DNA from: Bacillota bacterium
GTDB taxonomy: Bacteria > Bacillota > PH28-bin88
Assembly (NCBI GenBank): GCA_040757295.1
Contig: JBFLXH010000006.1
Coordinates: 23,300-87,299, forward strand
Reading direction: 5' to 3'
Length of the DNA stretch: 64,000 bases
Below, in pieces: positions 8,309 through 60,052 of the stretch (within the stretch, counting starts at the first letter, position 1; each line of letters opens with the position of its first letter). The notes under the pieces are model-generated. The model was given only the letters and a program-made list of their open reading frames with translations. It made no database searches and was not told the DNA's origin. The translations under genes were made by a program, and so were the position numbers.

Positions 8309-8424
8309 AATAATATAATGAGCGAGGCCACTAATTATTCATTGAATTACCGTGGCCTCAAAGCGAATTTCATACTCGGCTTCATTATGATAATGCAATT
8401 TTATCCCTTGCCGAGTATATTATT
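8309..8424 (-). repeat. hairpin-repeat family, unit A copy (inverted orientation)
   Basis: The reverse complement reads TATACTCGGCAAGGGATAAAATTGCATTATCATAATGAAGCCGAGTATGAAATTCGCTTTGAGGCCACGGTAATTCAATGAATAATTAGTGGCCTCGCTCATTATA. It is near-identical to the copies at 36388 and 56401. Confidence 0.9.
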
Positions 8425-8472
8425 GCGGTAGCATTTGATGCATGGCCACGAGGCCTGGTTGGAGGGGTATTA

Positions 8473-9165
8473 ATGGCTTGGCATTTGCTTTTGGTGGAGG
8501 ATGAGCCCAAAATTCGTGATATGGTTGTTGCTTACCTGAAAAATGAAGGATATACAATCAGTGTGGCAGCTAACGGCTCAGAAGGCCTGGAGCTTGCACG
8601 GAAATTAAACCCAGATTTAATTATCCTTGATTTAATGCTGCCCGTTATTGGCGGTTTAGAGGTCTGTCGGCAGCTGCGGCAGGAATCCCAGGTTCCTATA
8701 ATCATGCTCACTGCCAAAGCGGAAGAGGTAGACAAACTGCTTGGTCTGGAACTTGGCGCCGATGATTATATTACCAAGCCATTCAGTCTAAGAGAACTGG
8801 CTGCCCGAATACGGGTGGTCTTGCGGCGGAGCGGGCATGGGGTGCCGGGGACATCTCCGCTGGAAGTAATATCTGTCGGTGATTTAACCTTAGACTTAAA
8901 TCAGCGAGAAGTAAAGCTGGGCGGGAAACAGGTTGACCTGACTCCCACTGAGTTTTCCCTTTTGCATGTGCTAATGCGCCATCCTGGAAGGGCCTTCAGC
9001 CGGATGCACCTCTTAGATGCAGCCATGGGTGAAACCTATGCCGGATATGAACGGTCTGTTGATACCCATATCAGCAATTTACGCAGGAAGATTGAACCTG
9101 ATCCGGTCAATCCCAGTTACATCTTGACGGTTTTTGGCGTAGGCTACAAGTTCCGCTCTCGTTAG
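8473..9165 (+). CDS. OmpR-family response regulator
   Basis: 230-aa ORF. The receiver domain shows LLVEDEP and DLIILDLMLP. The winged-helix output domain ends in GVGYKF. Confidence 0.93.
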   Translation: MAWHLLLVEDEPKIRDMVVAYLKNEGYTISVAANGSEGLELARKLNPDLIILDLMLPVIGGLEVCRQLRQESQVPIIMLTAKAEEVDKLLGLELGADDYITKPFSLRELAARIRVVLRRSGHGVPGTSPLEVISVGDLTLDLNQREVKLGGKQVDLTPTEFSLLHVLMRHPGRAFSRMHLLDAAMGETYAGYERSVDTHISNLRRKIEPDPVNPSYILTVFGVGYKFRSR

Positions 9166-9188
9166 TCTTGTGGGGAGGATATTTATCA

Positions 9189-10556
9189 GTGAAATTAAAA
9201 GTCAAACTAACCATTGCCATGGTTTTAGTTGCTTTGGCAGCAACTTTTATGGCGGCTACTACTTCAGGATTTGCCACCCGCAAGCTATTTGAGGACTATG
9301 TCTTACACCAGCGAGAGACCCGAATGGCCCAGTGGGAGGCGGTTTTTTCCGCCTATTATGGCCAGAACGCCAGCTGGGACCAGGTGCAAAACCTGCTCAA
9401 TTTTACCAGGGGAAGGGGGCGAGGCGCGGGATGGCGCCTGGGCGGTGAGCGAGTAGTATTGGCTGATATAGATGGACGGATAGTAGGGGATTCCGAGGTA
9501 TCCATGCTGGGAAAGATGATGGGAAGCGGGACTTTGGCTCAGGCGGTGCCCATTATGTGGGGCGAACGGAAGGTTGGTTATTTATTCCTGACATCACGAT
9601 CACGGGCTAACCAAGGATTGGCCAGTCTTGAACAGGAATTCCAAGCATCAGTTAACAAGGCCGTCAGGCGGGGCGGACTGGCGGCAGCCCTTTTGGCCGT
9701 AGGGCTTGGCATTGCATTTTCCGGCAGATTGACTTTTCCCCTGGTGAAACTTACAGAGGCGGCGAAAAAGTTAGCCGGAAAGGAGTTGTCCTGCCGGGTA
9801 GAAATAACCAGCAGGGATGAAATCGGAGAATTGGCGCAGGCCTTTAATGCCATGGCAGACAATTTAGAAAGGAATGAACGAATACGCCAAAACCTGGTGG
9901 CTGATGTTGCCCATGAGCTTCGTACACCTTTGGCCATCCTGCGAGGCAACCTGGAATCCCTGCAGGAAGGAGTGGTAGAGCCTACTCCAGCCATCCTGGC
10001 TTCTCTCCATGATGAAGTATTACGAATGTCCAGGCTTGTTTCGGATCTGCAAGAGTTGAGTTTGGTAGAGGCAGGAATACTACCTCTGCAATTACAGCCT
10101 GTTTTTTTGCATGAATTAGCGGAACAGGTGGGTATGCTTTTTGCTGCTGAAGCGGCAGCGAAGGAAGTAAGGCTTATTATTGATGTTTCCTCTGATTTAC
10201 CGCCTGCCCAAATTGACCGGGACCGCATCGCACAGGTGATGCTTAATCTCCTGGCTAATGCCCTGCGCTATACAAAGGCCGGAGGAAGCATTACCCTGTC
10301 AGCGGCAAGGGAAGGAGAGCGGCTCTGCTTGCAGGTAAAAGATACGGGTGTTGGGATAAAGGCTGAAGAGCTGCCCCATATTTTCGACCGGTTTTTCAGG
10401 GGGGACAAGTCCCGTTCCAGGGCTGAAGGCGGCGGCGGACTTGGCTTGGCTATCGCCAAGGGATTTGTGGAGGCTCATGGCGGAGAGATTTGGGCAGAGA
10501 GCTCCCTGGGAGAGGGCAGTACTTTTTATCTGACCCTACCGCTATTTAAGGAGTAA
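9189..10556 (+). CDS. sensor histidine kinase (TM-HAMP-HisKA-HATPase)
   Basis: H-box VADVAHELRTPLA and G-box GGGLGLAIAKG. The track start is TTG 9168. The in-frame GTG at 9189 sits 9 nt after the GGGGAGGA RBS. Confidence 0.9.
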   Translation: MKLKVKLTIAMVLVALAATFMAATTSGFATRKLFEDYVLHQRETRMAQWEAVFSAYYGQNASWDQVQNLLNFTRGRGRGAGWRLGGERVVLADIDGRIVGDSEVSMLGKMMGSGTLAQAVPIMWGERKVGYLFLTSRSRANQGLASLEQEFQASVNKAVRRGGLAAALLAVGLGIAFSGRLTFPLVKLTEAAKKLAGKELSCRVEITSRDEIGELAQAFNAMADNLERNERIRQNLVADVAHELRTPLAILRGNLESLQEGVVEPTPAILASLHDEVLRMSRLVSDLQELSLVEAGILPLQLQPVFLHELAEQVGMLFAAEAAAKEVRLIIDVSSDLPPAQIDRDRIAQVMLNLLANALRYTKAGGSITLSAAREGERLCLQVKDTGVGIKAEELPHIFDRFFRGDKSRSRAEGGGGLGLAIAKGFVEAHGGEIWAESSLGEGSTFYLTLPLFKE

Positions 10557-10682
10557 GTTTTAGGCGATAGGTTTTTCCTTTCAAAACAGAATTCCGGTTG
10601 CCCGGCTGTCACGGTTGGGCACTTTTTCTATTAGGAAGAAAAATTTCCTTATTTAAAGGAAGTTGCTCCCAGGGCAGCGAAT

Positions 10683-10996
10683 GTCTGGCGGAGGGTGCGA
10701 GGGGAAACGGTAGAAGATGCTAGCAGGAAATCAGGGATATTTGTGATGGCTTAAAGGCAAAGGACCCTGAATTTAATTATGAGCTTCGTGAAATAATGGG
10801 AGTTGGCCCTACCTTAGTTCCTACTGATACCAAAGTTGTAGAGGCTTTCTTGTCGGCTGGGGAAAGGGTGCTGGGCCAGGGCCGTTGATTCAAGCCCCTC
10901 AAAATGACGAGTATATGGCAAATAAAGGACCTCTTAACAGCAGTCAAGGTGATGGCCCTAGGGGCTATGGAGTTATTGGGCTTTAAAGAGGTTTAA
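10683..10996 (+). pseudogene. degraded C-terminal relic of an M20 (ArgE/DapE-type) peptidase
   Basis: Three frames together read ...VRGETVEDASR / EIRDICDGLKAKDPEFNYELREIMGVGPTLVPTDTKVVEAFLSAGERVLGQ / ...NDEYM / IKDLLTAVKVMALGAMELLGFKEV*. There are frameshifts, an internal stop and an internal deletion. The N-terminal two-thirds are absent. Confidence 0.55.
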
Positions 10997-11008
10997 GCCT
11001 AAATTAAT

Positions 11009-11218
11009 TTGGAGGTGGCTGAAATGAAAGAAGGGTTTGTCGAAGATCCCAGATACAAACAGGCTGCAAAGGAAGCAAAAATCGGCCTGGGACTATTCTT
11101 TTTGAATATCCTTTGGTGGTTTGGCTTCTGTGTTCAGGGGCCGGGTGCTAAACCGGCCGGCGGATGGAACCTTGCGGCCTGTTGCTACCAATATTATGAT
11201 CTACCCATAATAACATGA
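11009..11218 (+). CDS. small membrane protein, DUF997/YhdT-like N-terminus (possibly truncated)
   Basis: The ORF begins MKEGFVEDPRYKQAAKEAKIGLGLFFLNILWWFGF, which resembles YhdT-type small proteins. The C-terminal half looks non-native and no panF-type partner follows. Confidence 0.35.
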   Translation: MEVAEMKEGFVEDPRYKQAAKEAKIGLGLFFLNILWWFGFCVQGPGAKPAGGWNLAACCYQYYDLPIIT

Positions 11219-11242
11219 ACTATTCCTTTGGAGGTGAGTAGT

Positions 11243-12836: not shown

Positions 12837-12869
12837 AACCCCTAAAACCTCATTTATGATAAAATAGGG

Positions 12870-13065
12870 GTAACTCAGGAGTCAGGAGTCAGAATGAGAG
12901 AACCGGCGAAAATATACTCGGCAAGGGGTAAAATTGCATTATCATAATGAAGCCGAGCATGAAATTCGCTTTCAGGCCACATTTTAATTAGCGGCCTCGC
13001 TCATTATAGCTTGTCATATTTTTTCATCCCTCTGATGGTGCCGCGATAAGCGGCGTGGGGGTCTG
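12870..13065 (+). repeat. hairpin-repeat family, composite locus (variant end module + unit A + degenerate left-end module)
   Basis: 12870-12922 is the inverted complement of 20364-20419. 12913-13008 is a unit A copy flanked by TATA. 13021-13060 weakly resembles the TIR-containing left end. Confidence 0.85.
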
Positions 13066-13116
13066 AATTCTGAATGCCTGAATAGTAACAAATAGGGATA
13101 TGTACTAGAAAAAGGT

Positions 13117-20273: not shown

Positions 20274-20419
20274 TTTATCACAGATGGCTACCCGCTCTTA
20301 AGCCTACGCTTCTTTAAAGCGGCGGGAAATGCTCGGCAAAGGAAAAATATTAAAATCAATGAAGCCGAGTATATTTTGGCCGGTTCTCTCATTCTGACTC
20401 CTGACTCCTGTGTAGTTAC
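20274..20419 (+). repeat. hairpin-repeat family, TIR-bearing left half + variant right end
   Basis: Starts with TTTATCACAGATGGCTACCCGCTC, the inverted complement of the ends at 58631 and 60029. The first 86 nt match 36257-36342 with a single mismatch. The right part is the inverse of 12870-12922. Confidence 0.9.
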
Positions 20420-20685
20420 GTTTTATCATTCCATGTTTTTAGAAGCAGCTCCTTGGCCTTTTTAGGGAGCCTGCGAATCTCTTTCTCCTTTCTCAAAGCA
20501 TCTCCCCGGCTAGCCGTCTTTTCGGCGTAGACCAGTGTTACAGGGCGCCGCCCTCTGGTGAAAATAGCTCCTTTGCCGGCATTATGAAGGGCAACCCGGC
20601 GGGACAGGTCGATGGTCTGGCCAGTGTACATGGAGCCGTCAGAACACTTTAGTATGTAGACCCAAAACACAGGGGTATCACTCAT
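20416..20685 (-). CDS. GIY-YIG nuclease family protein (UPF0213-like)
   Basis: 89-aa ORF: FWVYILKCSDGSMYTGQT...RR...HN.GKGA..T, the typical small GIY-YIG domain. Confidence 0.88.
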   Translation of the reverse strand: MSDTPVFWVYILKCSDGSMYTGQTIDLSRRVALHNAGKGAIFTRGRRPVTLVYAEKTASRGDALRKEKEIRRLPKKAKELLLKTWNDKT

Positions 20686-27986: not shown

Positions 27987-27987
27987 G

Positions 27988-29478
27988 ATGGCCAGGAGTA
28001 TCCTGTTTCAGCTGGTGGCCATTGGGGTGATCTCATTGATTTTTCCCCTTGGCTTTGCGATTTATGGCCTATACGCGGGTGCCGGCGTGGAAAGGCTGGC
28101 TGTGGAGGAGCGGGGGAGGCGTTTACAGGCCGTATTAGGGCTGGTTGAAAGCGGTTTAAGTGAAATTCCCAAGGAGGAAACCGGTGAGGTATTAGATGAA
28201 CGGGTAAAAGGAATCTTGAAAAAGAGTCTATCTAATTATTCAGGTGTCAGGGCAGGGGTTCTCCTTCTTCCTTCCCGCAGGGTAATCCTGGCAGGAGACC
28301 TGGACCGTTTTGACCACCGGCCAGAACCGTGGCCGCGGGAAGATGGAGATTTCATCCTGGAACGAAACCCGGTAGTCCTGCAAGCCTTAATGACCGGAGA
28401 ACGAGCTTCGGGACTGGTAGCTTTCTTTAAAGGAGAAAGATTGGTTCATGCAGTGCCGGTTTCCATAGCCAATGAAAAGGCAGTGGCCTGGACGGAAGAA
28501 ATGCTGCAGCCGGCTTTTGTCCATAACCGGGTTATGCGACAATGGGGTTTTATTTTATCTCTGCTCGGCCTGTCTGTTGCTTTTGCCAGCGCCCTCTACC
28601 TTTCCGGCAGGCTGGCCAGGGGTGTTAACCGGATCCAAAAGGGATTGGCATCCTTAAAGCATGACCTGAATTATCGTTTGCCCCCCATGTCGGGAGAACT
28701 GGGGCAGATTGCAGCGGCAATCAACCAGCTCGCCCGGGGGTTATTGGAAAGAGACCGGCTGGAACAACAATTGCAGCGCTCTACCCGCCTGGCTGCATTG
28801 GGGCACCTGACGGCCGGCGTAGCCCATGAGATGAGGAACCCTTTAGGCATTATCCGCGGCACCGCTCAGCTAATGTCGCAAGAATACAGCCACATACCAG
28901 GGTTGGCCCAGGACGTGGGAGTAATCCTGGAACAAGTAGACCGGCAAAACCGGGTGATCCGGGAGTTGCTGGATTTTGCCAGGCCTTCCCCTCCCCAGGT
29001 GCAGACACTTGATCTTAATGCTGTGCTGGAATCCGTACTGTTATTTAGCAGGAAATTCTTGCAGCAGAAGCAGGTTGAACTGATTACAAGACTTGACTAT
29101 GGAATCCCGCCAGTTCAGGCTGACGGTGAAAGAATCAAACAGGTTTTTCTCAACCTGTTATTGAATGCTGCAGAGGCCATGCCCGGGGGCGGTAGGATTA
29201 CCATTGAAACTAGCGGAAGTCCTGGAAGAGTAGTTGTCAGTTTTCGGGATACAGGACCGGGAATCAGTCCTGCTGATCTGCCCCACCTTTTTGACCCATT
29301 TTTCACTACAAAAAACGAAGGTACCGGATTGGGTTTGGCTATTTCACACCAAATTGTTACTTTGCATGGCGGGACAATCGAGGTTGAGCAGGGTAACCCC
29401 GGAGCAGTCTTTAGAGTAATCTTGCCTGCATTTGAAGAAGGGAGGAGCGGTGGTGGAACCCTTGATCCTGGCAATTGA
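27988..29478 (+). CDS. sensor histidine kinase (NtrB/AtoS-like, HAMP-HisKA-HATPase)
   Basis: H-box GHLTAGVAHEMRNPL and G-boxes DTGPGI / GTGLGLAISH, with two TM segments flanking an extracytoplasmic domain. Confidence 0.92.
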   Translation: MARSILFQLVAIGVISLIFPLGFAIYGLYAGAGVERLAVEERGRRLQAVLGLVESGLSEIPKEETGEVLDERVKGILKKSLSNYSGVRAGVLLLPSRRVILAGDLDRFDHRPEPWPREDGDFILERNPVVLQALMTGERASGLVAFFKGERLVHAVPVSIANEKAVAWTEEMLQPAFVHNRVMRQWGFILSLLGLSVAFASALYLSGRLARGVNRIQKGLASLKHDLNYRLPPMSGELGQIAAAINQLARGLLERDRLEQQLQRSTRLAALGHLTAGVAHEMRNPLGIIRGTAQLMSQEYSHIPGLAQDVGVILEQVDRQNRVIRELLDFARPSPPQVQTLDLNAVLESVLLFSRKFLQQKQVELITRLDYGIPPVQADGERIKQVFLNLLLNAAEAMPGGGRITIETSGSPGRVVVSFRDTGPGISPADLPHLFDPFFTTKNEGTGLGLAISHQIVTLHGGTIEVEQGNPGAVFRVILPAFEEGRSGGGTLDPGN

Positions 29479-30808
29479 CGATGAAGAGCATATGCGAAAT
29501 TTGCTGGAACGGGCCTTGCGGCCTCAGGCAAGGGTTATTTCTGCCGCTACCGGCCAGGAAGGGCTACACCTGGTTGAGAGGGAAGAACCTGCCCTGGTCC
29601 TGCTGGATATGCGGCTGCCTGATATGAATGGGATAGAAGTCTTAAAAATAATCAAAGAAAAGTCGCCCCGAATCCAGGTGATCATGATCACTGCCTATGG
29701 CTCCATCGATACCGCTATTGAGGCCATCAAAGCCGGAGCGGCAGACTACCTAACCAAGCCTTTTGATATTGAAGAACTGCGCCTGGTCGTTGGACGGAAC
29801 TTGCAGCTAAATGCCTTGGTTAAACAGGTGGAAATATTGCGAGAGGAAGTCCAATCAAGGCACCCGGACGAAATAGTAGGGGAGAGTGAGCCCACCAGGA
29901 TATTGCGCCGAACCATCGAACAGATTGCCGGTACCCAAGCTACAGTCCTGCTGACGGGGGAAAGCGGCACCGGCAAAGAAGTTGTGGCCAGGGCCATCCA
30001 CCGTAGCAGCCAGCGCAGGGATAAACCGCTGGTGGTAGTAAACTGTGCTGCCTTGCCCGAGCACCTGTTGGAAAGCGAATTGTTTGGTCATGAAAAAGGA
30101 GCTTTTACCGGCGCGGTGGCCAGGAAGCCGGGCAGGTTTGAACTGGCGGATGGGGGAACTATTTTCCTGGACGAGATTGGGGAAATGGCTCCCTTAATGC
30201 AGGCCAAGCTGTTACGGGTACTGCAGGATCGTTCCTTTGAAAGAGTTGGAGGAACAAAGACCATAAGAGTTGATGTGAGGGTAATCGCAGCTACAAACAG
30301 GAACTTGCCTGAGGCGATCCGTTCCGGATCTTTCAGAGAAGACCTATACTATCGTCTGAATGTGGTTCACCTGCACCTGGTCCCCCTTAGAGAAAGGAAG
30401 GAAGACATTCCTGCCCTTGCTCAATTCTTTTTAACCAAATTCGACGTCAGAAAAAAAATCAGGGAAATATCTACTGGGGCCATGAAAATGATGCAAGCAC
30501 ATCAATGGCCAGGCAATGTGAGAGAGCTGGAAAACGCCATTGAGCGTTCGCTGATTGTGGCTCCAGGTGAAGTGATCCTGCCTGAACACCTGCCTTTTGC
30601 AGCCGCCAGACCTGCAGGGAATGCATTAGAAAAGGACGACTATATTATCCGGTTTCCGCCAGAAGGAATTTCTCTGGATGAAGTAGAGCGAGGGCTGATC
30701 CTGGAGGCTCTCCGCCGAACTAACGGAAACAGGACAGTTGCGGCCAAATTGCTGGGCATCACCCGCTCTGCCCTGTTGTACCGCCTGGAAAAGCACGGAT
30801 TGCCCTGA
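29453..30808 (+). CDS. sigma-54-dependent response regulator (NtrC/AtoC family)
   Basis: Receiver domain (LLDMRLPDMNG), AAA+ domain with GESGTGKE and the GAFTGA loop (EKGAFTGA), and a C-terminal Fis-type HTH. The start is GTG after the GGGAGGAG RBS; the track start is TTG 29432. Confidence 0.93.
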   Translation: MEPLILAIDDEEHMRNLLERALRPQARVISAATGQEGLHLVEREEPALVLLDMRLPDMNGIEVLKIIKEKSPRIQVIMITAYGSIDTAIEAIKAGAADYLTKPFDIEELRLVVGRNLQLNALVKQVEILREEVQSRHPDEIVGESEPTRILRRTIEQIAGTQATVLLTGESGTGKEVVARAIHRSSQRRDKPLVVVNCAALPEHLLESELFGHEKGAFTGAVARKPGRFELADGGTIFLDEIGEMAPLMQAKLLRVLQDRSFERVGGTKTIRVDVRVIAATNRNLPEAIRSGSFREDLYYRLNVVHLHLVPLRERKEDIPALAQFFLTKFDVRKKIREISTGAMKMMQAHQWPGNVRELENAIERSLIVAPGEVILPEHLPFAAARPAGNALEKDDYIIRFPPEGISLDEVERGLILEALRRTNGNRTVAAKLLGITRSALLYRLEKHGLP

Positions 30809-35674: not shown

Positions 35675-35701
35675 TGCTGCTTTATATTGGAAACAGAAGG
35701 G

Positions 35702-35915
35702 CTACTTGAACACTGCGCCATTCATGGCGGAAGTCACCTGGTTGGCGTACCTCTCCAGGCAGCTGCCTTTTGGGATGTCTTTCTGGAAAGGCACAAAACC
35801 TTCCCTGCGGCGGGCCAGCTCTTCATCGCCGACCAGCACGTTTGCCTTGCCGTTGATAATGTCAATTTCCACGATGTCACCCTCTTGAATTAGGGCTAGA
35901 ATCGCCGCACTGCTG
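35702..35915 (-). pseudogene. C-terminal relic of dihydroxy-acid dehydratase (IlvD/Edd family)
   Basis: Reverse translation gives ...AAILALIQEGDIVEIDIINGKANVLVGDEELARRREGFVPFQKDIPKGSCLERYANQVTSAMNGAVFK*. Only the last ~70 residues of an IlvD-type protein are present. Confidence 0.65.
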
Positions 35916-35924
35916 CTGCAGGCA

Positions 35925-36134
35925 AAAGCTGCAAAACTGCGGGAAATTTTTTGGTTCTGTCAGGAGGCGACCTTTTGCATCCACCAGGGTTACCCCTAGC
36001 CCTACACTTAAGGCAAACTTTTCCGTAATAGCCTCGAGGCTAACCAGCTGAGTGATTTCCTCCAGATCGATATCGTCTATTGTTGAAGGCTCTCCCAGTG
36101 CAATGGGCAGAGTAGGGTAGACAATACTCATCAT
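35925..36134 (-). pseudogene. N-terminal relic of a PocR-type sensory domain protein
   Basis: ...ITQLVSLEAITEKFALSVGLGVTLVDAKGRLLTEPKNFPQFCSFC fits the PocR ligand-binding domain pattern. The reading frame then runs into the IlvD relic and stops. Confidence 0.45.
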
Positions 36135-36256
36135 TCAAATTCAACTCCTGGACAGACGGCTTAAACGCGAAAAAATTTCTAGATAACTTTTTATTTATCC
36201 TGCCGGAAGGTTTTGCCGTCTGGTAAATAATCTGCCTGAGGAGGGGTGCGCGGAAG

Positions 36257-36535
36257 TTTATCACATATGGCTACCCGCTCTTAAGCCTACGCTTCTTTAA
36301 AGCGGCGGGAAATGCTCGGCAAAGGAAAAATATTAAAATCAATGAAGCCGAGCATGAAATTCGCTTTCAGGCCACGTTAAATTAATGTATACTCGGCAAG
36401 GGATAAAATTGCATTATCATAATGAAGCCGAGTATGAAATTCGCTTTGAGGCCACGGTAAATCAATGAATAATTAATGGCCTCGCTCATTATATAATTTG
36501 TGGCCTGGCTCATTAAAAGAACGGCTACGCCCCTG
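36257..36535 (+). mobile_element. TIR-bounded hairpin-repeat element (B/C type) carrying a nested unit A
   Basis: Left TIR TTTATCACATATGGCTACCCGCTC (36257-36280). The right end is degenerate (GAACGGCTACGCC, about 36519-36531). The second hairpin CAGGCCAC(36368)/GTGGCCTG(36500) is split by the insert. Confidence 0.85.
36388..36493 (+). mobile_element. nested unit A copy flanked by TATA on both sides
   Basis: TATA-CTCGGCAAGGGATAAAATTGCATT...AATGGCCTCGCTCAT-TATA sits inside the loop that is uninterrupted in the copy at 58585-58620. Confidence 0.85.
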
Positions 36536-36894
36536 CATTAACTGGCCCCGCACGAGCGGGGGTCACAATCCCCCTCTGAAGCCAAGACCCAGGTGAACAC
36601 CTTTTCCTTCTTTGCCGGAGAAGTTTTCCTTAAAAAGGACAACTCCTGCCTGTATATTTGTTCTAGGTTGTTGAAATCTTGTCTATCTCCATCAAGTCTC
36701 CAATTCTTGGTTAATAAAATTAGTGCATGGAGGAAATGAAAAAAACATAAAGGCTAACTTTGTTGCTTTTGATAGGCAGTCCGGGGTTTAAGTGGGGAGG
36801 ATTTTTTTGTAAATGGGCGAATTTTTTTTGAACAGCGTTCGTTAAACCAGGGCCTGGTTTAAATCTATGGTAGAATAAGAAAGGGTGATAATAC

Positions 36895-37677: not shown

Positions 37678-39423
37678 ATGCAAGCACATGAAAACCATAT
37701 AGGTGGCGTTGCTTTGTCAGAAATCCTGCATACCTTTCATAACGGGATACTAATAGTTGATAATGCAGCAGCCATTCGGTTCGTTAACCGAATGGCTGCT
37801 ACAATCCTTGGGCTAGATCCGGATAATGTGCTTGGGAAAGCCATCCAGGAAGTAATTCCAGATTCGGAGCTGCCCAAGGTGTTGTTAACGGGAGTAAGCA
37901 GGTTGGGCCAAAAGTATAGTTTGGGAAGCGTGACAATTATTGCCCATCATTCTCCCTTTTTCCTAAATGGAAAAATTGCTGGGGCAGTTTCCGAATTTCA
38001 GGAAATCACCGAGATGGAGAAAATGTTTATCCAGTTAAGGAATCTCCAAGAACTAAGCAGCCAGTTAGAGGCTATTCTGGAGTCGTCTTACGATGGTATT
38101 TACATTACCGGGTCTGACGGGGAAACCTTGCGGGTCAACAAGGCTTATGAAAGAATAACGGGGCTAAAGGTGAGCGATCTCGTTGGAAAAAACATGAAGG
38201 ATTTAGAGTCCAAAGGAGTGATTACCAACTCAATTACTTTTAAAGTGGTAGAAACCAAGCAACCGGTAACGGCTATTCAAAAAACTGCCACGGGAAAGGA
38301 AATTTTTGTTACTGGCAGCCCCATCTTTGACCAACAGGGAAAAGTCGCAGCCGTTGTAACAAACGTAAGGGATATGTCCCAACTGAAGGCTCTTCAGGAG
38401 GATTTGCAGCAGTCAAAAAGACTGACCTTTCGTTACCATAACCAGCTTCTGCGCCTGCAAGCCAGGGATTCCGCTTTTGCTGAGGAAATGGTAGCAAGAA
38501 GCAAGAAGATGTTGGATGTCCTGGAATTAGCACAACGGGTGGCCATGTTTGATTCAACGATTTTAATTCTTGGCGAATCCGGTGTAGGTAAGGATTTAGT
38601 CGCGGAATTGATTTATCGCTCAAGTCCCAGGTCGACCAAAGGTTCCTTTATCCGTGTTAATTGCGGGGCTATCCCCTACAACCTGTTGGATTCTGAATTG
38701 TTCGGCTATGAGGAAGGCGCTTTTACTGGCGCTCGCAGGGGCGGCAAACCCGGGCTGTTTGAACTGGCCGACCAGGGGGTCTTGTTCCTGGATGAAATCG
38801 GCGAATTGCCCCTTGATTTGCAGGTGAAGTTACTTAGAGTAATCCAGACCAGAGAGTTTAATAGACTGGGTGGTGTACAGCCCATAAAAGTAGATGTTAG
38901 ATTAATCACAGCTACAAACAAGGACTTAATCAAGGAAGTTGCCGCTGGCCGTTTCCGGCAGGACCTTTATTACCGGATCAATGTAGTGCCAATTATTGTG
39001 CCGCCGTTAAGGGAAAGAAATGAAGACATTATCCCTTTAGCCGTGTATTATCTGGAAAGCTTTAATAGAAAGTATGGGTATTCACGTTTTTTCTCGCCGG
39101 CAGTTCTGGAAGCTTTTTTGTCTTACGAATGGCCGGGCAACGTACGGGAGTTGATTAATGTGGTTGAACGTTTAGTGGTGACAGCCGAACATGACCATAT
39201 TAATGTAGAAAGGTTGCCGGCAGTTTTTATGCAGAATAATAAAGAGATTGCGGAGTGTGGAACATGGGATTTTCATAGTGCGCGTGAAGCATTAGAAAAA
39301 AAGCTGATTGAAGACGCTTTAAAAATGCACAGGACAACCAGGAAAGCGGCCAAAGCATTGGGGATTAGCCAGTCAGGCCTAATAAGGAGAATTAGTAAAT
39401 TCGGGCTAAAAAGTCGTAAATGA
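37678..39423 (+). CDS. sigma-54-dependent transcriptional activator with PAS sensor domains
   Basis: 581-aa ORF with two PAS-like regions, an AAA+ domain (GESGVGKD, GAFTGA loop EEGAFTGA) and a C-terminal HTH. Confidence 0.93.
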   Translation: MQAHENHIGGVALSEILHTFHNGILIVDNAAAIRFVNRMAATILGLDPDNVLGKAIQEVIPDSELPKVLLTGVSRLGQKYSLGSVTIIAHHSPFFLNGKIAGAVSEFQEITEMEKMFIQLRNLQELSSQLEAILESSYDGIYITGSDGETLRVNKAYERITGLKVSDLVGKNMKDLESKGVITNSITFKVVETKQPVTAIQKTATGKEIFVTGSPIFDQQGKVAAVVTNVRDMSQLKALQEDLQQSKRLTFRYHNQLLRLQARDSAFAEEMVARSKKMLDVLELAQRVAMFDSTILILGESGVGKDLVAELIYRSSPRSTKGSFIRVNCGAIPYNLLDSELFGYEEGAFTGARRGGKPGLFELADQGVLFLDEIGELPLDLQVKLLRVIQTREFNRLGGVQPIKVDVRLITATNKDLIKEVAAGRFRQDLYYRINVVPIIVPPLRERNEDIIPLAVYYLESFNRKYGYSRFFSPAVLEAFLSYEWPGNVRELINVVERLVVTAEHDHINVERLPAVFMQNNKEIAECGTWDFHSAREALEKKLIEDALKMHRTTRKAAKALGISQSGLIRRISKFGLKSRK

Positions 39424-53676: not shown

Positions 53677-55677
53677 TCATGTTCCTGATTGGTATGGCTG
53701 CCGGAGAAGCTGGGCGAGGAAAGCCTCCAGGCCGTATTTTTTTATTTTGCGGTAAAGGGTGGTGCGCCCAATGCCCAAGACCTTGGCTGCTTGACTCAAA
53801 TTGCCGCTGTTCACCCGGATGGCTTCGCGGATAGAATCTTTTTCCAGATCGCTGAGGGATAGGCCCATGGATTTTGGCGGGGAGGGGGAATGCCGTTCCC
53901 CCAGAATTGTCATAACCGTTTCCCGCTGGATAGGGCCATCGGGGACAAGATAAGCAAGCCGCTGGACGGCATTTTCCAGTTCCCGGACATTGCCGGGCCA
54001 GGAGTAGGATTCAAGGCATGCCAGGGACGTTGTGGAAAAATAAAGTCTTTTGCCCAGCCGGTGACTCATTTTTTCCAGGAAGTGTCTGGCCAGCAGGGTG
54101 ATGTCACCGGCACGCTCCCTTAAGGGAGGGACATGGATGGGAAATACATTCAGGCGGTAATACAGGTCCTGGCGGAAATTGCCCCGGGAAACCTCCTGGC
54201 TCAAGTTTTTGTTGGTGGCTGTAATAATCCGCACATCTACGGGAATAACCTGACTCCCGCCGATGCGGATCAACTGCCGGTCTTGAATAAAGCGCAAGAG
54301 GGCTGCCTGTAGGTCTAGAGGCATATCCCCGATTTCATCCAAGAAAATGGTGCCGCCATCCGCCAGTTCGAATTTGCCTGGGGAACCCTGATGTTTAGCA
54401 CCGGTAAAGGCCCCCTCAGTGTAACCAAACATTTCGCTGCCGATCAGGTCTTTGGGGATAGCTCCGCAGTTAATGGCCACAAAAGGACCTTCTGTTCTCG
54501 AGCTGGCATTGTGAATGGCCTGGGCCAGCAGTTCCTTGCCGGTGCCGCTTTCTCCCAGAATAAGGATGTTTAAGGAATTTTCGGCAGCCAGTTTGGCCAG
54601 GGCCATGGTCTGGCGCATGGTTTTGCTTTGAGCCAGGATATCATCGAAGGTGAACAGGGCCCGGGCCCCGATCATGCGCTGCACCAGGCGGCGGACTGTC
54701 TTTATTTCCTGAATAGTGGCAACCGCGCCGGCAATGGAGGAGCCTTCTTTGCTGATTGGTTTAACCGCAACAGTGCAGTGCACTCTTTTTCCGGCTTCTT
54801 CGATAGATACTTCCTTGTCAATATATTCTCGGCCTTTTTGGAGCACTTCTTTTATTTTTAGTTGTTCCGCAAGAGAAGCGGGAAGGGGGCGGGTCAGAAC
54901 CTGCTCAGGCGGGAGGCTGAACAACCTGGCGGCAACTGAATTAATTTCAACGACTTGGCCTTGCTGGTTAACCGTTATTACCCCGTCAGACATGGATTCC
55001 AATACCGCGCGAAGGTATTTATTGCTGAGGGCTAGGCTGGCGGAAATTTGCTGGTTTTTCAGCTGATGTTCTATCGCCTGAGCAGCGGCCACTACCATCC
55101 CCAGGGTATGGGGATGGACCTTTAAAAAGTGGCCCGACATGTTAAGGATAGCTATTTGATCCCCCTGAGGGGCACGGATTGGAGCTGCGGAACAGGTCCA
55201 ATCGTGACACGGTTTACAGTAGTGCTCAACTGAGCAGACTTGAACAGGTTGGCCGGTTTCCAATGCAACCCCAATGGCTGTAGTTCCCATATAGGCTTCT
55301 GCCCAATTCACTCCTGGAACCAGATTAATATTGTCCGCTTCGTTTAAAACTTCGGCATCCCCCAGGAGTTCCAGCAGATTCCCTTGGGCATCGCATAGGG
55401 TGACCACAAAACCGGAGCCTGCTACCAGCCGGAACAGGCTTTCCATAAACGGTTTGGCAGTTAATATCAGGTTCTGGTGACGGACGATAGTAGCAGCTAA
55501 GACGGCCGGCGGTAATTTCTTCAGTTGGGGTTGATAGGGGTTGACCTTCAACATGGCGCATCTTTCCCAGGAGGCCAGGATCACAGGGCGGACGTGAGCT
55601 GAGGTAATCTTCCGCTGTTCGATAAAACAATGCCATGCATGCAATAACTGCTGCCGGTCATTAGTGACATTCTGCAT
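53677..55677 (-). CDS. sigma-54-dependent activator, AcoR/PrpR-like (GAF-PAS-AAA+-HTH)
   Basis: 666-aa ORF with an N-terminal GAF-like sensor, a PAS domain, an AAA+ domain (GESGTGKE, GAFTGA loop TEGAFTGA) and a C-terminal Fis-type HTH. Confidence 0.92.
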   Translation of the reverse strand: MQNVTNDRQQLLHAWHCFIEQRKITSAHVRPVILASWERCAMLKVNPYQPQLKKLPPAVLAATIVRHQNLILTAKPFMESLFRLVAGSGFVVTLCDAQGNLLELLGDAEVLNEADNINLVPGVNWAEAYMGTTAIGVALETGQPVQVCSVEHYCKPCHDWTCSAAPIRAPQGDQIAILNMSGHFLKVHPHTLGMVVAAAQAIEHQLKNQQISASLALSNKYLRAVLESMSDGVITVNQQGQVVEINSVAARLFSLPPEQVLTRPLPASLAEQLKIKEVLQKGREYIDKEVSIEEAGKRVHCTVAVKPISKEGSSIAGAVATIQEIKTVRRLVQRMIGARALFTFDDILAQSKTMRQTMALAKLAAENSLNILILGESGTGKELLAQAIHNASSRTEGPFVAINCGAIPKDLIGSEMFGYTEGAFTGAKHQGSPGKFELADGGTIFLDEIGDMPLDLQAALLRFIQDRQLIRIGGSQVIPVDVRIITATNKNLSQEVSRGNFRQDLYYRLNVFPIHVPPLRERAGDITLLARHFLEKMSHRLGKRLYFSTTSLACLESYSWPGNVRELENAVQRLAYLVPDGPIQRETVMTILGERHSPSPPKSMGLSLSDLEKDSIREAIRVNSGNLSQAAKVLGIGRTTLYRKIKKYGLEAFLAQLLRQPYQSGT

Positions 55678-56400: not shown

Positions 56401-56513
56401 ATTATATACTCGGCAAGGGATAAAATTGCATTATCATAATGAAGCCGAGTATGAAATTCGCTTTGAGGCCACGGTAAATCAATGAATAATTAGTGGCCTT
56501 GCTCATTATAATG
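56401..56513 (+). repeat. hairpin-repeat family, unit A copy
   Basis: ATTATATACTCGGCAAGGGATAAAATTGCATTATCATAATGAAGCCGAGTATGAAATTCGCTTTGAGGCCACGGTAAATCAATGAATAATTAGTGGCCTTGCTCATTATAATG. Confidence 0.9.
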
Positions 56514-56694
56514 TTTTTAGGCCTTGCAAGGGGATCCCTCCTTGAAAACAATGAGACAAGGGAATAATTCGCGGGCAAATCATCTTCCCCTGCTTTTGGT
56601 TTTCTGGAAATGCCGAGAAAAAAACACCTGGTATAAAGGAAAAAACTGTCTCAACTCGAAGCATTATGAAAGTGCATTCTGGGGGGATAAGCAA

Positions 56695-57333
56695 ATGGCT
56701 GCGGTATATTTGATCAGGCACGGCCGTACCCGGTGGAATAAGGAAGAGGTTTTCCGGGGGCAGACAGAAGTGCCCCTTGATGATTGGGGCCGCAGGCAGG
56801 CTCAAGCCGTCGGCCGGGCCTTGCAGGGAAAGGGTATTGAGGCTGTAATCACTAGCCCCCTGGGAAGGGCGGTGGAAACGGCGGAACTGGCCAAATTGGC
56901 TTGGGGTGACATTCCGCTCCTGGTGGAGCCGGGGCTGACGGATGTCCATTTTGGGGAGTGGCAGGGGCTGTCCCGGCAAGAAGTGGCAAGCCGTTATCCC
57001 CAGTTGTATCGGGACTGGGCACAGCATCCCGGACAGGTGGCATTTCCCGGGGGAGAAATCATGGAAGAAGCTGCTGAGCGGTGTTGGGAAGCTTTTCAAA
57101 GGATTTGCAATGATTACCGGGGAAGATCGGTCGCTGTGGTCACCCACCGGGTAATCACCAAAATCCTGCTGAACCGGGTGCTGGGAGCAGGGTGGCAGGG
57201 TTTCTGGAAGCTTCGCCAGGACACGGCCTGTATTAATCTCCTGGAGTCCGCCGGGGAGTTCCTGGTGGTCCAGCACCTCAACGAAACCTGCCACCTGAAG
57301 GAGCTAGGGGCGGGCGACAGGATCGACTTTTAA
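56695..57333 (+). CDS. histidine phosphatase family protein (phosphoglycerate mutase/CobC-like)
   Basis: MAAVYLIRHGRTRWN... carries the RHG catalytic motif, with VVTHRV later. I use the internal ATG at 56695; the track ORF starts at 56524. Confidence 0.88.
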   Translation: MAAVYLIRHGRTRWNKEEVFRGQTEVPLDDWGRRQAQAVGRALQGKGIEAVITSPLGRAVETAELAKLAWGDIPLLVEPGLTDVHFGEWQGLSRQEVASRYPQLYRDWAQHPGQVAFPGGEIMEEAAERCWEAFQRICNDYRGRSVAVVTHRVITKILLNRVLGAGWQGFWKLRQDTACINLLESAGEFLVVQHLNETCHLKELGAGDRIDF

Positions 57334-57398
57334 CTGGTGCCTGTTGGCTTGACGATCAGCTAAAATGCCAGTTCGAGCTACGGCTTGGGCGGGTGAGA

Positions 57399-58274
57399 CT
57401 ATAGTCCCCGGTACCTTTCAGGCCGGAAATACCCCTGGTCCTTTTCCCGGAGGACCTGGTCTAGGAGTGCCAGTAATGCCTCCCGGTCCTGGCTCAAGGT
57501 GCCCTTTAAAGCCAGGTAGTTGGAGGCGTGGTTGCTGCGGAAAACGCAGCCGGTCAAGGAAAGACTGGCCAAGAGCAGCCGGGTTTCCAGGGCTGTTTCC
57601 AGGGGGTCCAGCAATGAAAAACGGCCTTCCCGGATCCAATGATCAAGGGGAGTCCCGGGTTTGACCATCAGTGTCAACAAACCCAGGTACTGGGGGGCGA
57701 TGGCATTCAGCACCCTGGCGGTTTCCGAGGCATGCTCTTCCCAGTGTTCCCGGCCTCCTAACCCCGAGATAACGGTGACCGAAAGATCAATCCCTGCATT
57801 AACGCCTTTGCGGCCGGCCAGAACCATTTCTTCGGCGCTAACCCCTTTACCCATTAGCTGCAGGATGCGGTCACTCCCGCTTTCAATGCCCATGTAGATC
57901 ATGCCTAGGCCGTGCTCTTTCAGCGCAACCAGTTCTTCCGGCTTTTTGGCCAGGATATCCTTGGGACCCCCGTAGACAGATACCCTCTGCAAGTGGGGAA
58001 AGTCGCGGTAAAGCCGGTCCAGCAAGCGCAGCAGCAGTTCTGTGTCAGCGGCCAGGGCATCACCGTCCGCCAGGAAAATCCGCCCCACTCCTGGGACCGT
58101 TGCTTTAGCTTCCGCCAGGTCTTCCTCTATCTCTTCCCATGTTTTGACAGAGAATTGCTTTCCTTTGTACATGCAGCAAAAAGCGCACCGGTTGTGGGCG
58201 CAGCCGATGGTAACCTGCAGGATCAAGCTGTCGGCTTCGCTGGGCGGCCGCCACAGGGGCAGGTTGTACTTCAT
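57399..58274 (-). CDS. radical SAM protein of unassigned subfamily
   Basis: 291-aa ORF with the CAHNRCAFC (CX3CX2C) cluster motif near the N-terminus and an AGGAGTGG RBS. Confidence 0.85.
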   Translation of the reverse strand: MKYNLPLWRPPSEADSLILQVTIGCAHNRCAFCCMYKGKQFSVKTWEEIEEDLAEAKATVPGVGRIFLADGDALAADTELLLRLLDRLYRDFPHLQRVSVYGGPKDILAKKPEELVALKEHGLGMIYMGIESGSDRILQLMGKGVSAEEMVLAGRKGVNAGIDLSVTVISGLGGREHWEEHASETARVLNAIAPQYLGLLTLMVKPGTPLDHWIREGRFSLLDPLETALETRLLLASLSLTGCVFRSNHASNYLALKGTLSQDREALLALLDQVLREKDQGYFRPERYRGL

Positions 58275-58289
58275 TGATTTTCCACTCCT

Positions 58290-58532
58290 CTAGTTCGGGG
58301 TTTGGACCTGATTAATGATTCGCCGGTCAGCCCCGATTTCCTGTCTTGTCGGCAGGGTGATCGGGGTCGGTTTTTTCACCGCAGGTTTTTTTGAGGGAAT
58401 AATAATTTTGTGGTTAAATGGGGTAAGGAGAAAACTGCCATAGGCTTGGGCAGCGCCGAATACCAGTAATGCAGTGGCGTAGCCGCTCTTATGCCGTCGC
58501 TTTACAGAAGCGGGGGGTATAATACTCGGCAA
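58290..58532 (-). CDS. small ORF translationally coupled to the radical SAM gene; its only start codon lies inside the repeat (possibly a truncated gene)
   Basis: 80-aa ORF with one hydrophobic segment (YATALLVFGAAQAYGSFLL). Its stop overlaps the RBS of the radical SAM gene. The TTG start at 58532 is part of the repeat stem. Confidence 0.3.
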   Translation of the reverse strand: MPSIIPPASVKRRHKSGYATALLVFGAAQAYGSFLLTPFNHKIIIPSKKPAVKKPTPITLPTRQEIGADRRIINQVQTPN

Positions 58533-58654
58533 AAAATAAAATTTTATTACAATAACTAATGAAGCCGAGTAGGAAATTCGCCTTCAGGCCACGTCAGATA
58601 AATGTATATTTTGTGGCCTGGCTCATTTTAGAGCGGGTAGCCATCTGTGATAAA
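58518..58654 (+). repeat. hairpin-repeat family, C-type copy with intact right TIR
   Basis: TATAATACTCGGC...GAAGCCGAGTAGGAAATTCGCCTTCAGGCCAC...GTGGCCTGGCTCATTTTAGAGCGGGTAGCCATCTGTGATAAA. Confidence 0.9.
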
Positions 58655-58718
58655 AAGGACTTTAACCTTTAGTTGTCGAAGTTTTTTTGCCAAATAGATT
58701 TGGAAAGTGGTGATATTT

Positions 58719-59885
58719 TTGTCCACCGGCAGCTGCAGCGTATCTGTAAAAGCTCAGGAAATACCTTCTTTTATCGTGATGGACGTTTTGGAAAAGGCCA
58801 AACAAATGGAGGCCCAGGGAGAACATATTATTCACCTGGAAGTGGGAGAACCTGATCAGGACACCCCGCAGCCAATTGTGGAAGCAGCGGCGAAAGCTAT
58901 GCGAGAGGGGGATACCCACTATACCCACAGCCTTGGCAAGATGGAATTACGGGAAGAAATCTCCAGGTATTACCATCGGAAATATGGTGTAGAAGTATCT
59001 CCTGATCGCATTATTGTGACTTCTGGCACCTCCCCGGCCATGCTGTTAATTTTTTCAGCCTTGTTGAACAGGGGCGAAGAAATTATTTTGTCTGATCCCC
59101 ACTATGCCTGCTATCCTAATTTTATCCGGTACGTTGATGGGCAGCCTGTATTTGTGCCGGTCAGCGAACAGGACGGATTTAAATACCGCATGGAGAATAT
59201 CAAGGGAAAAATAACCCCTTTAACAAAAGGAGTGTTATTAAACTCTCCTGCCAATCCGACTGGAAATGTGTTTTCGGGGCAAGAACTGCAGGAAATTGCG
59301 GCCCTTGATCATTACATTGTCTCTGATGAAATATATCACGGCCTTACCTATGAAGGAGAAGAACACACCATTTTGGAATATACGGATAAGGCTTTTGTAA
59401 TTAACGGTTTTTCCAAACTTTATGCCATGACCGGCTGGCGTCTTGGCTATGTAATTGCACCTCCAGAGTTTGTCCGGCCAATGCAAAAACTCCAGCAGAA
59501 CCTGTTCATCTGTGCCGGGTCTTTTGTCCAAGCCGGTGGGATTGCTGCCCTGCGGGAATGTGATGACCACGTGGCCAAAATGGTGACGGTTTATGACCAG
59601 CGCCGGCGCTACCTCTTATCCCGCTTGAAAACCCTGGGAATTGCCACGCAGGTTGAACCCACCGGAGCCTTCTATGCACTGGCAAATGTCAAAGAGTATA
59701 CCATGGATTCCTATTCCTTCGCTTTTGAAATCCTGGAACAAGCCAAGGTAGCCGTTACCCCCGGCATTGATTTTGGGCGCAATTGTGAGGGTTACCTCCG
59801 TTTTTCCTATGCTAATTCGCTGGAAAATATTAAGGAGGGCCTTGACCGCTTAGAGGCCTTTCTGGAACGAAAAACCCTAAAGTAA
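58719..59885 (+). CDS. class I/II pyridoxal-phosphate-dependent aminotransferase
   Basis: IPSFIVMDVLEKA...HLEVGEPD N-terminal region and the PLP-lysine context NGFSKLYAMTGWRLGY. The start is uncertain (GTG 58707/58710 or TTG 58719). Confidence 0.9.
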   Translation: MSTGSCSVSVKAQEIPSFIVMDVLEKAKQMEAQGEHIIHLEVGEPDQDTPQPIVEAAAKAMREGDTHYTHSLGKMELREEISRYYHRKYGVEVSPDRIIVTSGTSPAMLLIFSALLNRGEEIILSDPHYACYPNFIRYVDGQPVFVPVSEQDGFKYRMENIKGKITPLTKGVLLNSPANPTGNVFSGQELQEIAALDHYIVSDEIYHGLTYEGEEHTILEYTDKAFVINGFSKLYAMTGWRLGYVIAPPEFVRPMQKLQQNLFICAGSFVQAGGIAALRECDDHVAKMVTVYDQRRRYLLSRLKTLGIATQVEPTGAFYALANVKEYTMDSYSFAFEILEQAKVAVTPGIDFGRNCEGYLRFSYANSLENIKEGLDRLEAFLERKTLK

Positions 59886-59898
59886 GCTGTGTTTTACT

Positions 59899-59927
59899 GG
59901 CCCGGGATACCCGGGTCTTACTTTTTT
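59899..59927 (+). terminator. intrinsic terminator
   Basis: GGCCCGGGATACCCGGGTC followed by TTACTTTTTT. Confidence 0.65.
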
Positions 59928-59946
59928 CTAAAAAGACCATCTGTTG

Positions 59947-60052
59947 ACAATAACTAATGAAGCCGAGTAGGAAATTCGCTTTCAGGCCACGTCAAATAAA
60001 GGTATATTTTATGGCCCGGCTCATTTTAGAGCGGGTAGCCATCTGTGATAAA
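59947..60052 (+). repeat. hairpin-repeat family, C-type copy lacking the left arm, intact right TIR
   Basis: ACAATAACTAATGAAGCCGAGTAGGAAATTCGCTTTCAGGCCAC...ATGGCCCGGCTCATTTTAGAGCGGGTAGCCATCTGTGATAAA. It is a direct repeat of 58548-58654. Confidence 0.9.

Follow-up and report, generated by a model that had tools for sequence, protein, structure and literature searches.

Hairpin repeats that depend on other elements for their movement are already familiar in bacteria. REP (repetitive extragenic palindromic) sequences, BIMEs (bacterial interspersed mosaic elements) and REPINs are mobilized by Y1 transposases, the RAYTs (REP-associated tyrosine transposases, TnpA-REP; PMC8266576, PMC3116915, PMC5581495). 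A REP is a palindrome of 20-50 nt preceded by a conserved tetranucleotide, usually GTAG, and the occurrence of GTAG on one strand next to the palindrome is both the hallmark of REPs and their proposed guide (PMC8266576). RAYTs of group 1 occur in Clostridia; the record of abundant REPs is limited to groups 2 and 3, in Proteobacteria (PMC5581495). PATEs (palindrome-associated transposable elements) are non-autonomous derivatives of IS200/IS605 (PMC10055086). Here, we analyzed a stretch of 64,000 nt from a Bacillota bacterium (assembly GCA_040757295.1, contig JBFLXH010000006.1, positions 23,300 to 87,299; hereafter the window), which carries a dispersed family of nested hairpin repeats. By analogy, this family would work most like REP/BIME/REPIN or PATE systems, and its modular, stem-enclosed architecture resembles that of BOX and ERIC elements. 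On balance, and with modest confidence, we read the copies as lineage-restricted, small, AT-rich, non-coding and non-autonomous mobile modules of the MITE (miniature inverted-repeat transposable element), REP/BIME or PATE type, rather than as genes or as one fixed RNA.

The repeat family is genuine. A sequence-only reading of the window had placed near-identical modules at seven intergenic loci, and reading all seven sequences together with repeat statistics bore out both their places and their membership of one family (c1 to c7, in order of position). A degenerate 35-nt pattern of the common core, AATGAAGCCGAGNANGAAATTCGCNTTNAGGCCAC, matched seven times in the window, and none of 100 shuffles contained any match. 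A 24-mer, GAGCGGGTAGCCATCTGTGATAAA, matched four times with at most one mismatch, compared to zero expected matches. The same repeat families were obtained by a general repeat search of the window. Sequence beyond the window comprised contigs of 'Bacillota bacterium MAG124' (L001 and L002), JGI metagenome contigs (L007-L013) and loci of relatives (L004-L006, L014-L016, L019 and L020). When the window and all fetched loci were compared with one another by blastn, dispersed short repeats of the window were confined to the seven loci; the only other matches were segments of paralogous sigma-54 activators and positions 63416-63666, which are homologous to locus L004 of a relative. A covariance model of the core (R1) scored full copies at 106-138 bits and partial copies at 32-83 bits. 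The units have a GC content of 34-40%, compared to 49% for the window, and the description of the family as dispersed, intergenic, non-coding and hairpin-rich is supported. The family is apparently undescribed. A full-text literature search for five diagnostic oligomers returned unrelated primer coincidences only, and the Rfam scan that had been proposed as a check found no family at the gathering score in the window and nine loci, with nothing up to E = 10 except noise at E > 2.

The family extends beyond the window. The core pattern matched at least two contigs of 'Bacillota bacterium MAG124': on L002, a complete copy of the free core (unit A) lies between TATA sequences, and the copy on L001 is 5'-truncated. 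Both are 96-99% identical to the three intact unit A copies of the window, c1, c5 and c4b, the last of which is nested within c4. The 24-mer matched seven JGI metagenome contigs, in which the palindromic module E0 and the hairpin module S, both described below, sit between housekeeping genes. Three Logan contigs, drawn from two sequencing runs, match the window at 100% identity, and all of them end inside copies. They span positions 58630-59976, positions 56483-58578 and, in the third case (19,866 nt, fetched from 43677 onward), a stretch that ends at 56428 and would begin near c4. Every mappable Logan contig end falls within c5, c6 or c7, as is typical of multi-copy repeats in de Bruijn assemblies. 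These results bear on the proposal that would have undone the sequence-only reading, namely that segmental duplication or recombination within this region alone produced the copies, without any element being involved. Copies do recombine with one another, as indicated by the chimeras c2 and c3, which share an inverted module X around 7.4 kb. However, copies reside on unrelated contigs of another metagenome-assembled genome (MAG) and in metagenomes, and therefore they are not local duplications. Furthermore, their flanks are unrelated from copy to copy, their boundaries are sharp and reproducible, and assemblies of the identical strain end inside them. We consider a purely local origin extremely improbable.

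By contrast with these carriers, neither core nor E0 was detected by blastn and covariance models in ~116 kb of five relatives with 74-89% amino-acid identity. The sole trace was a solitary TTTATCATAGATAGCTGCCCGCTCA, with five mismatches to the E0 arm, at L004 6614-6637 and L005 4497-4520. It sits in the rpiR-dctP spacer of the 89%-identity relative; the orthologous site of the window (~63090) is unrelated, and ~0.02 chance matches were expected in the sequence searched. This may be what remains of an older E0. In the same relative, the orthologous aminotransferase-glyoxalase spacer lacks the whole of 59886-60280, c7 included. A base-level empty site of unit A was not found, since proteins orthologous to those flanking c1 are only 74-77% identical and the spacer is unalignable. 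Look-ups of identical proteins returned the same strain only. Viral contigs gave no match to the core pattern or the 24-mer, a blastn search of plasmids and phages with copy 6 gave chance matches only (E ≥ 0.2), and a 663-aa chimera of stop-free module translations had no match in the protein database.

At least four module types make up the family: E0, a two-hairpin core whose free form is unit A, X and S. The core measures ~105 nt, and its two hairpins fold as the sequence-only reading had described, with modest z-scores of -2.1 and -2.4. Unit A is flanked on both sides by TATA in every copy. Its left flank always terminates in (T)ATA, its right end is always CTCATTATA, and a hairpin lies within 0-10 nt of each end. 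An end alignment revealed no convincing terminal inverted repeat (TIR) in unit A, the best ungapped match being 8/12. Unit A thus resembles PATEs, reportedly described by Dyall-Smith in 2011, in being non-coding, in lacking both a TIR and a variable target-site duplication, in carrying sub-terminal hairpins and in its position 3' of a fixed tetranucleotide. The tetranucleotides at its left flank and right end (TATA and TATA) are comparable to the target-adjacent and transposon-encoded motifs of IS200/IS605. Moreover, a Y1 transposase is encoded in one genome that carries unit A (L002), as in PATE hosts.

E0 is an imperfect palindrome of ~85 nt with the layout CCAGTTAACTAGGGGC-GTAGCC-GCTCTTAT-CC-CACCGCTTC-GGAG-GAAGCGGGGG-C-ATTAGAGC-GG-GTAGCC-ATCTGTGATAAA, and it terminates in ...CCATCTGTGATAAA. 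The 24-mer is the 3' arm of E0, which is free-standing in the metagenome contigs. The claim that composite units (B/C) are bounded by 24-bp TIRs therefore did not hold: the 24-mer is one arm of a separate element, and no copy carries it at both ends. The complete elements, copy 4 and copy 6, each possess one 24-mer arm and one diverged arm, CCAGT(T)AATGCAG(G/T)GGCGTAGCCG(C/T)TCTT, the two arms being ~17/25 identical. E0 alone folds at z = -4.9, and E0 with an adjacent 26-bp S hairpin at z = -12.4. GTAGCC occurs on the same strand in both arms, in 9/10 5' arms and 9/10 3' arms, counted over the window together with the organism or organisms of the JGI contigs. This direct arrangement results in G.G mismatches in the stem at positions where a true inverted repeat would pair. 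In 9/10 E0 copies from two organisms, GTAG lies directly 5' of CCGCTCTTAT...ATTAGAGCGG.

E0 thus has the combination of palindrome and preceding GTAG by which REPs are defined. Cores of the C type likewise carry GTAG 5' of their extended hairpin 2; the corresponding tetranucleotide is GCAT in B-type cores and, as a difference from REPs, GTAT in unit A. The plus strand of c6 contains three GTAG and no CTAC. As in REP/BIME systems, the palindromes are short, intergenic and densely spaced, the motif is strand-specific, no target-site duplication is present, and the palindromes form mosaics with other short motifs and tandem arms. E0 differs from REPs in its greater length, with a palindrome of 45-50 nt that contains an inner hairpin, and from the REPIN doublet in that GTAG is direct on both arms instead of inverted. 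No RAYT gene was seen, such as the REP-flanked tnpA-REP of a REPtron, and the host is a Clostridia-like Bacillota.

Module X is present twice in the window, the two copies being inverted relative to each other (alignment score 96). Module S is a long hairpin, of which the window holds a remnant at 36546-36602 and one further possible representative upstream of c1. In L009 (1982-2100) and L012 (1836-1920), the 27-nt 5' arm of S (TTCAACTGGGTCTTGGCTTCAG.GGGG) is repeated two to three times head to tail and followed by a single 3' arm, directly upstream of E0, in a BIME-like arrangement. In REP/BIME systems, REPs alternate with inverted REPs, often as tandem arrays, whereas the two GTAG of E0 are direct. 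A further module, M, occupies the inner loop of E0 in four copies on JGI contigs (L009, L007 and L012). Variable-length modular composites of this kind are also known from BOX of Streptococcus (boxA-boxB(n)-boxC; PMC3049150) and from ERIC/IRU of enterobacteria (PMC3184786, PMC2229807). In these elements, too, an outer stem tolerates inserted or multiplied inner modules and the copies lie in transcribed intergenic spacers, and the BOX host is likewise Gram-positive. They share no sequence similarity with the present family, however. BOX has TIRs and target-site duplications and is linked to ISSpn2. In the present family, the inner module also occurs free, as unit A, and nesting is hierarchical instead of a tandem array.

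The seven positions stood, whereas the boundaries of loci 2, 3, 4 and 6 had to be revised on the basis of blastn, alignments and repeated ends (Table 1). The repeated part of locus 2 is 12856-13010 instead of 12870-13065. Positions 13011-13065 show a weak likeness to inverted X (p ~0.04), and an inverted X copy at 13011-13090 was considered and left out of the locus on account of this weakness. Locus 3 extends to 20429 on the right. Locus 4 extends to ~36602, the extension consisting of a second diverged end (36516-45) and the S-arm remnant; together (36516-36602) they correspond to the c6 left end and to the S modules found in L007-L012. Locus 6 starts at ~58462 instead of 58518, and its left end reads CCAGTAATGCAGTGGCGTAGCCGCTCTTAT, which equals 36516-36545 in reverse complement.

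Table 1. Repeat modules and related features of the window (positions count from its first letter)
Feature	Position	Strand	Description and evidence
c1, unit A	8309-8424	-	TATA-flanked; covariance hit 8314-8420, 138 bits
Possible shortened S-type hairpin	8243-8275	+	CCAACTGG-G10-CATT-GCCCCCC, then T run; assignment uncertain
Module X	12856-12922	+	ATGATAAAA..GTAACT..(CAGGAGT)x2..CAGAATGAGAGAACCGGCGAAAATATA; joined to 5' arm of hairpin 1
c2, unit A variant, mosaic	12912-13008	+	Covariance hit, 106 bits; alignment
c3 part 1, E0 24-mer arm and E0 inner hairpin	20274-20330	-	Exact 24-mer
c3 part 2, B-type hairpin 1 only	20331-20372	+	R1 hit, 36 bits; A-type 3' arm gives G.U pair
c3 part 3, module X	20364-20429	-	Inverted relative to 12856-12922; 96% over 50 nt
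c4, E0 24-mer arm (one mismatch) and E0 inner hairpin	36257-36310	-	24-mer and E0 model matches
c4, B-type core	36311-36517	+	Hairpin 2 loop interrupted by nested unit A
c4b, unit A nested in hairpin 2 loop of B-type core	36388-36493	+	Covariance hit, 134 bits; TATA on both sides
c4, second diverged E0 arm and S-arm remnant	36516-36602	-	Reverse complements CCAGTTAATGCAGGGGCGTAGCCGTTCTT, then GTTCACCTGGGTCTTGGCTTCAGAGGGGG
c5, unit A	56401-56513	+	TATA-flanked, divergent promoter region; covariance hit, 138 bits
c6, complete composite	58462-58654	+	Outer E0 stem closes around three inner hairpins in the fold, z = -5.5
c7, C-type core and E0 24-mer arm	59947-60052	+	Core 5'-truncated within hairpin 1 loop

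The arrangement within individual copies shows modules inserted into one another. The claim of element-like insertion is upheld by c4, in which the unit A copy c4b splits the hairpin 2 loop of a B-type core. The 3' arm of that core resumes directly after the insert, hairpin 2 closes around the insert in the fold, and the likely empty site is visible in the uninterrupted loops of c6 and c7. Copy c1 lies at the exact center of a perfect 18-nt palindrome, GCAATAATA|TATTATTGC, as reconstructed for the empty site, and c5 lies one base off the center of the palindrome CATTATATAATG. The presence of unit A in a core loop, of c1 and c5 near palindrome centers and of M in the E0 loop together indicates that insertion in or beside hairpin loops is recurrent. 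Twice, a core lies within E0, in opposite E0 orientations: in c6 (E0 forward) it sits 3' of the inner hairpin, and in c4 (E0 reversed) on the other side. The c3 fragment shares the c4 arrangement with reversed E0. In c6, the E0 5' arm with inner hairpin (58462-58517) is followed by a C-type core (58518-58630) and then by the 24-mer arm of E0 (58631-58654). On the core strand, the core junction is alike in c4 and c6, just 5' of T(T/A)AGAGCGG. In c4, nesting reaches a depth of three levels. On this reading, the mosaics build up as hairpin modules are inserted, one after another, into each other's loops or next to them. This is seen directly for unit A in a core loop, for the core at two mirror-image positions within E0 and for M in the inner loop of E0 in other genomes. 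Later exchange between copies then yields chimeras such as c2 and c3.

In both chimeras, an A-type arm of hairpin 1 is paired with a B-type arm. Copy c2 combines A-type ends with a B-type middle (GCCGAGCATGAAATTCGCTTTCAGGCCAC), has a loop that is 10 nt shorter, and carries A.C and C.C stem mismatches; on c3, the E0 covariance model gave a minus-strand hit at 20274-20357 with 35 bits. The reciprocal mixed arms look as if left by an exchange or inversion between A-type and B-type copies. The inverted X pair (96% identical) brackets 7.4 kb that contain hflX, a vanW-like gene and genes for an M23 peptidase, an HpcH aldolase and a DUF401 protein.

The hairpins are real and conserved: 95% of cells in the core alignment pair, as do 95% of those in E0. 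From compensatory stem changes between unit types, it had been argued that the hairpins are selected. The two double changes are real; the argument built on them is weak. Only 2/17 core pairs change on both sides, 199/500 shuffles do likewise, and the recombinants c2 and c3 contradict it with the mispaired states A.C, C.C and G.U. In E0, a single pair shows a double change. Covariation is significant in neither module, and the compensatory changes add little beyond the existence of two subfamilies and recombinants between them.

These data also speak to the possibility that the repeats are primarily functional host sequences, with mobility secondary or absent. They could be structured RNAs (stabilizers, attenuators, processing sites or small RNAs) or genome-organizing protein-binding sites as proposed for REP/BIME and ERIC. 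The retention of the hairpins would agree with this, as would the fact that the best conserved part of the core is the single-stranded linker with its adjoining arms, AATGAAGCCGAG.A.GAAATTCGC.TT.AGGCCAC. Elements lie in untranslated spacers between genes of the same direction, besides promoter regions, and therefore many must be co-transcribed; some fill such a spacer entirely. In L007 (10495-10666), a reversed E0 with an enlarged M insert occupies nearly the whole 180-nt spacer between a glycogen phosphorylase gene and a 4-alpha-glucanotransferase/amylase gene on the same strand. If both genes share a transcript, as their arrangement suggests, this element is transcribed in that mRNA. In addition, 9/13 E0 24-mer arms face a gene start, but this tally is not significant (p ~0.13), and promoter and terminator consensus matches within the elements are at chance level. 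Against a primary host function stand the lack of any Rfam match, the insignificant covariation, the tolerance of truncated and chimeric copies, and close relatives that do without the family at orthologous sites. Copies are found in either orientation and in all kinds of intergenic context, be it behind stops, between divergent starts or between convergent ends. In the window, c3 lies 6 nt past a stop, c5 and c6 lie between divergent starts, and c1, c2 and c7 between same-strand genes. We regard a primary host function as distinctly unlikely; effects on the host are probably incidental.

Multiple copies, sharp ends, nesting, a patchy distribution and no coding capacity shown lead us to infer non-autonomous transposition. 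To judge from the 97-98% mutual identity of the unit A copies c1, c4b and c5, the family appears to be active now or to have been so recently. As a tentative suggestion, the mover could be a single-strand transposase of the HUH/Y1 type encoded elsewhere, either a RAYT or an IS200/IS605-type TnpA. Such an enzyme would recognize the folded hairpins on one strand, and insertion would occur next to TATA in DNA that is either single-stranded or has extruded into a hairpin. To the left of CTCGGC, three bases pair with those after hairpin 1, as ATA/TAT in the A type and as ATG/CAT in the B type. The left-flank TATA would pair with the TAT after hairpin 1, like the guide-target pairing of IS200/IS605. 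One may speculate that this pairing reflects a guide with its target rather than upkeep of the stem.

A HUH/Y1 enzyme is favored over a DDE transposase because unit A lacks a TIR, because composites of S and E0 have neither target-site duplication nor inverted outer ends, and because GTAG stands on one strand beside palindromes, junction tetranucleotides are fixed and targets are hairpin loops. The competing view treats the modules as classical MITEs moved by DDE transposases: unit A would derive from an IS630/Tc1-type element with TA or TATA duplication, E0 would be a MITE of some insertion sequence, bounded by TIRs, and nesting would reflect a preference for AT-rich palindromes. TATA on both sides of every unit A suits this view, and so do the targets: that of c1 is a perfect palindrome centered on TA|TA, and c5 lies in a 12-nt palindrome. 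Dimeric transposases that work on double-stranded DNA typically have a symmetric target consensus. The reconstructed empty site of unit A is the same whether TATA is a duplication or the target plus an element end. Further points in its favor are the inverted ends of E0 (~25 nt, imperfect, 17/25 identical) and a weak 8/12 match of TACTCGGCAAGG in unit A to the reverse complement of its right end, TAATGAGCGAGG (p ~0.02-0.06). The AT-rich and strongly folded units also resemble MITEs (PMC3049150), and with Correia/NEMIS, RUP and the TA-duplicating, IS630-like-derived Nezha-type MITEs they share a length of 100-200 nt, a TA-containing target and occasional nesting.

Those elements, however, have clear TIRs of at least 20 nt that match known insertion sequences, whereas unit A has none that is convincing. 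The outer ends of the S and E0 composites, TTCAACTGG... and ...TGTGATAAA, are not inverted repeats, and B and C cores sit in E0 without direct repeats at the junctions. The A/B difference in the bases that pair with hairpin 1 is not what one would expect of a pure target duplication. The ~300 kb fetched showed no DDE transposase, a minority of the open reading frames (ORFs) in the loci having been run against Pfam. We judge an origin through DDE transposases unlikely. To a similarly low degree we entertain a bolder variant of single-strand transposition, in which the modules would be substrates of an unrecognized REP/RAYT-like system of Clostridia-type Bacillota. Its Y1/HUH enzyme would read GTAG-type guides beside hairpins and insert modules preferentially into the single-stranded loops of other hairpins, including those of its own family, so that hierarchical BIME-like mosaics result; the difference between the A and B feet would then be a co-change of guide and target.

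Several observations weigh against non-autonomous transposition by a HUH/Y1 enzyme. A partner transposase was not found. As the sequence-only reading had stated, none is present in the window, by Pfam among non-overlapping likely genes drawn from ORFs of at least 100 aa, and none is present among 22 likely genes on five JGI loci (L007, L009, L010, L012 and L013). A six-frame phmmer search with an approximate IS200 TnpA query found no match in the window or L007-L013, although diverged RAYTs could escape this query. The single match lay on L002 and was confirmed by Pfam as Y1_Tnp (1.7e-39) beside a TnpB gene. It belongs to an IS605-type element on the minus strand at 2000-3800 of this MAG124 contig (JBFLZY010000116.1), 2.8 kb from the unit A copy, in which tnpA (Y1_Tnp, 134 aa) overlaps tnpB (OrfB_IS605 and Cas12f1-like TNB domain, 380 aa). 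We rejected it as the partner, since neither its left nor its right end resembles hairpin 1, hairpin 2 or E0, and the homologous ends that link PATEs to their parent elements are thus missing there. Its presence shows no more than that a carrier genome encodes an enzyme of this kind. Moreover, hairpin 1 of unit A abuts TATA, the candidate cleavage site, instead of lying ~15-20 nt away, and the two hairpins are unrelated in sequence and have long loops of 20-28 nt; in these respects and in hairpin spacing, unit A is unlike PATEs and the canonical IS200/IS605 ends of IS608 and ISDra2. No scaffold like a guide RNA (omega-RNA) was recognized, with Rfam giving no match. A palindromic AT-rich target with TATA on both sides also fits a DDE transposase that duplicates TA or TATA, and E0 does have imperfect inverted ends. 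The invariance of the 24-mer in L007-L013 follows from its use as the search query; four secondary E0 copies near these matches differ from it at 1-4 positions. Finally, no within-species empty/filled polymorphism was found, and movement is for this reason deduced from structure.

Apart from the repeats, the window has the gene content of an ordinary chromosome of an uncultured Bacillota. Pfam identified a trp operon, two-component systems, HflX, a glycyl-radical enzyme, three sigma-54 activators, sporulation genes and others. For two proteins of the window, the best named homologs are 65-80% identical and come from Moorella, Neomoorella and 'Clostridiales bacterium PH28_bin88'. The sigma-54 activators are paralogous (29432-30808, 37678-39423 and 53677-55677) and account for three other repeats of the window (D6, I6 and I8, at 29956-30306, 38681-38927 and 54318-54556), which are conserved AAA+ segments unrelated to the hairpin family.

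Close to c1, the hairpin at 8243-8275 is probably the terminator of gene 7749-8237. It was listed as terminator-like and resembles, by eye, the S variant of L011 (CAACTGG...GGGGTATTGCCCCCCTCAAG). Its 5' arm (8249-8272) contains a run of ten G, a homopolymer prone to slippage and sequencing error. Adjoining c4 on the minus strand (35690-36140), two gene fragments are separated by frame shifts and stops, a PocR-like N-terminus (~36137 to 35880) and the C-terminus of an IlvD/Edd-type dehydratase (~35890 to 35693). The picture is one of local gene decay or rearrangement beside the repeat. Within the 24-mer arm of c7 begins a plus-strand ORF of 101 aa (60045-60350) with no Pfam match, most of whose DNA (to ~60280) is missing from the orthologous spacer of the 89%-identity relative. 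It may be a gene remnant, and its motif ...LRVRGLVEKPIDYSWDLL... is reminiscent of molybdopterin oxidoreductase N-termini.

Bacterial genomes are shaped by small hairpin repeats, which break assemblies, give rise to inversions and pseudogenes, and change mRNA stability as well as promoters. Here, assembly breaks at three copies (c5-c7) in two public runs. Abundant REP/BIME-like systems are well studied in Proteobacteria and hardly in anaerobic Bacillota. The two covariance models, for the core and for E0, could serve for masking or scaffolding MAGs of the lineage. The family provides an unusually clear record of hairpin-in-hairpin nesting, and its free unit lacks a TIR and has a fixed TATA junction. 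Should the transposase come to light, the family would offer a compact system for how single-strand transposases choose their targets.

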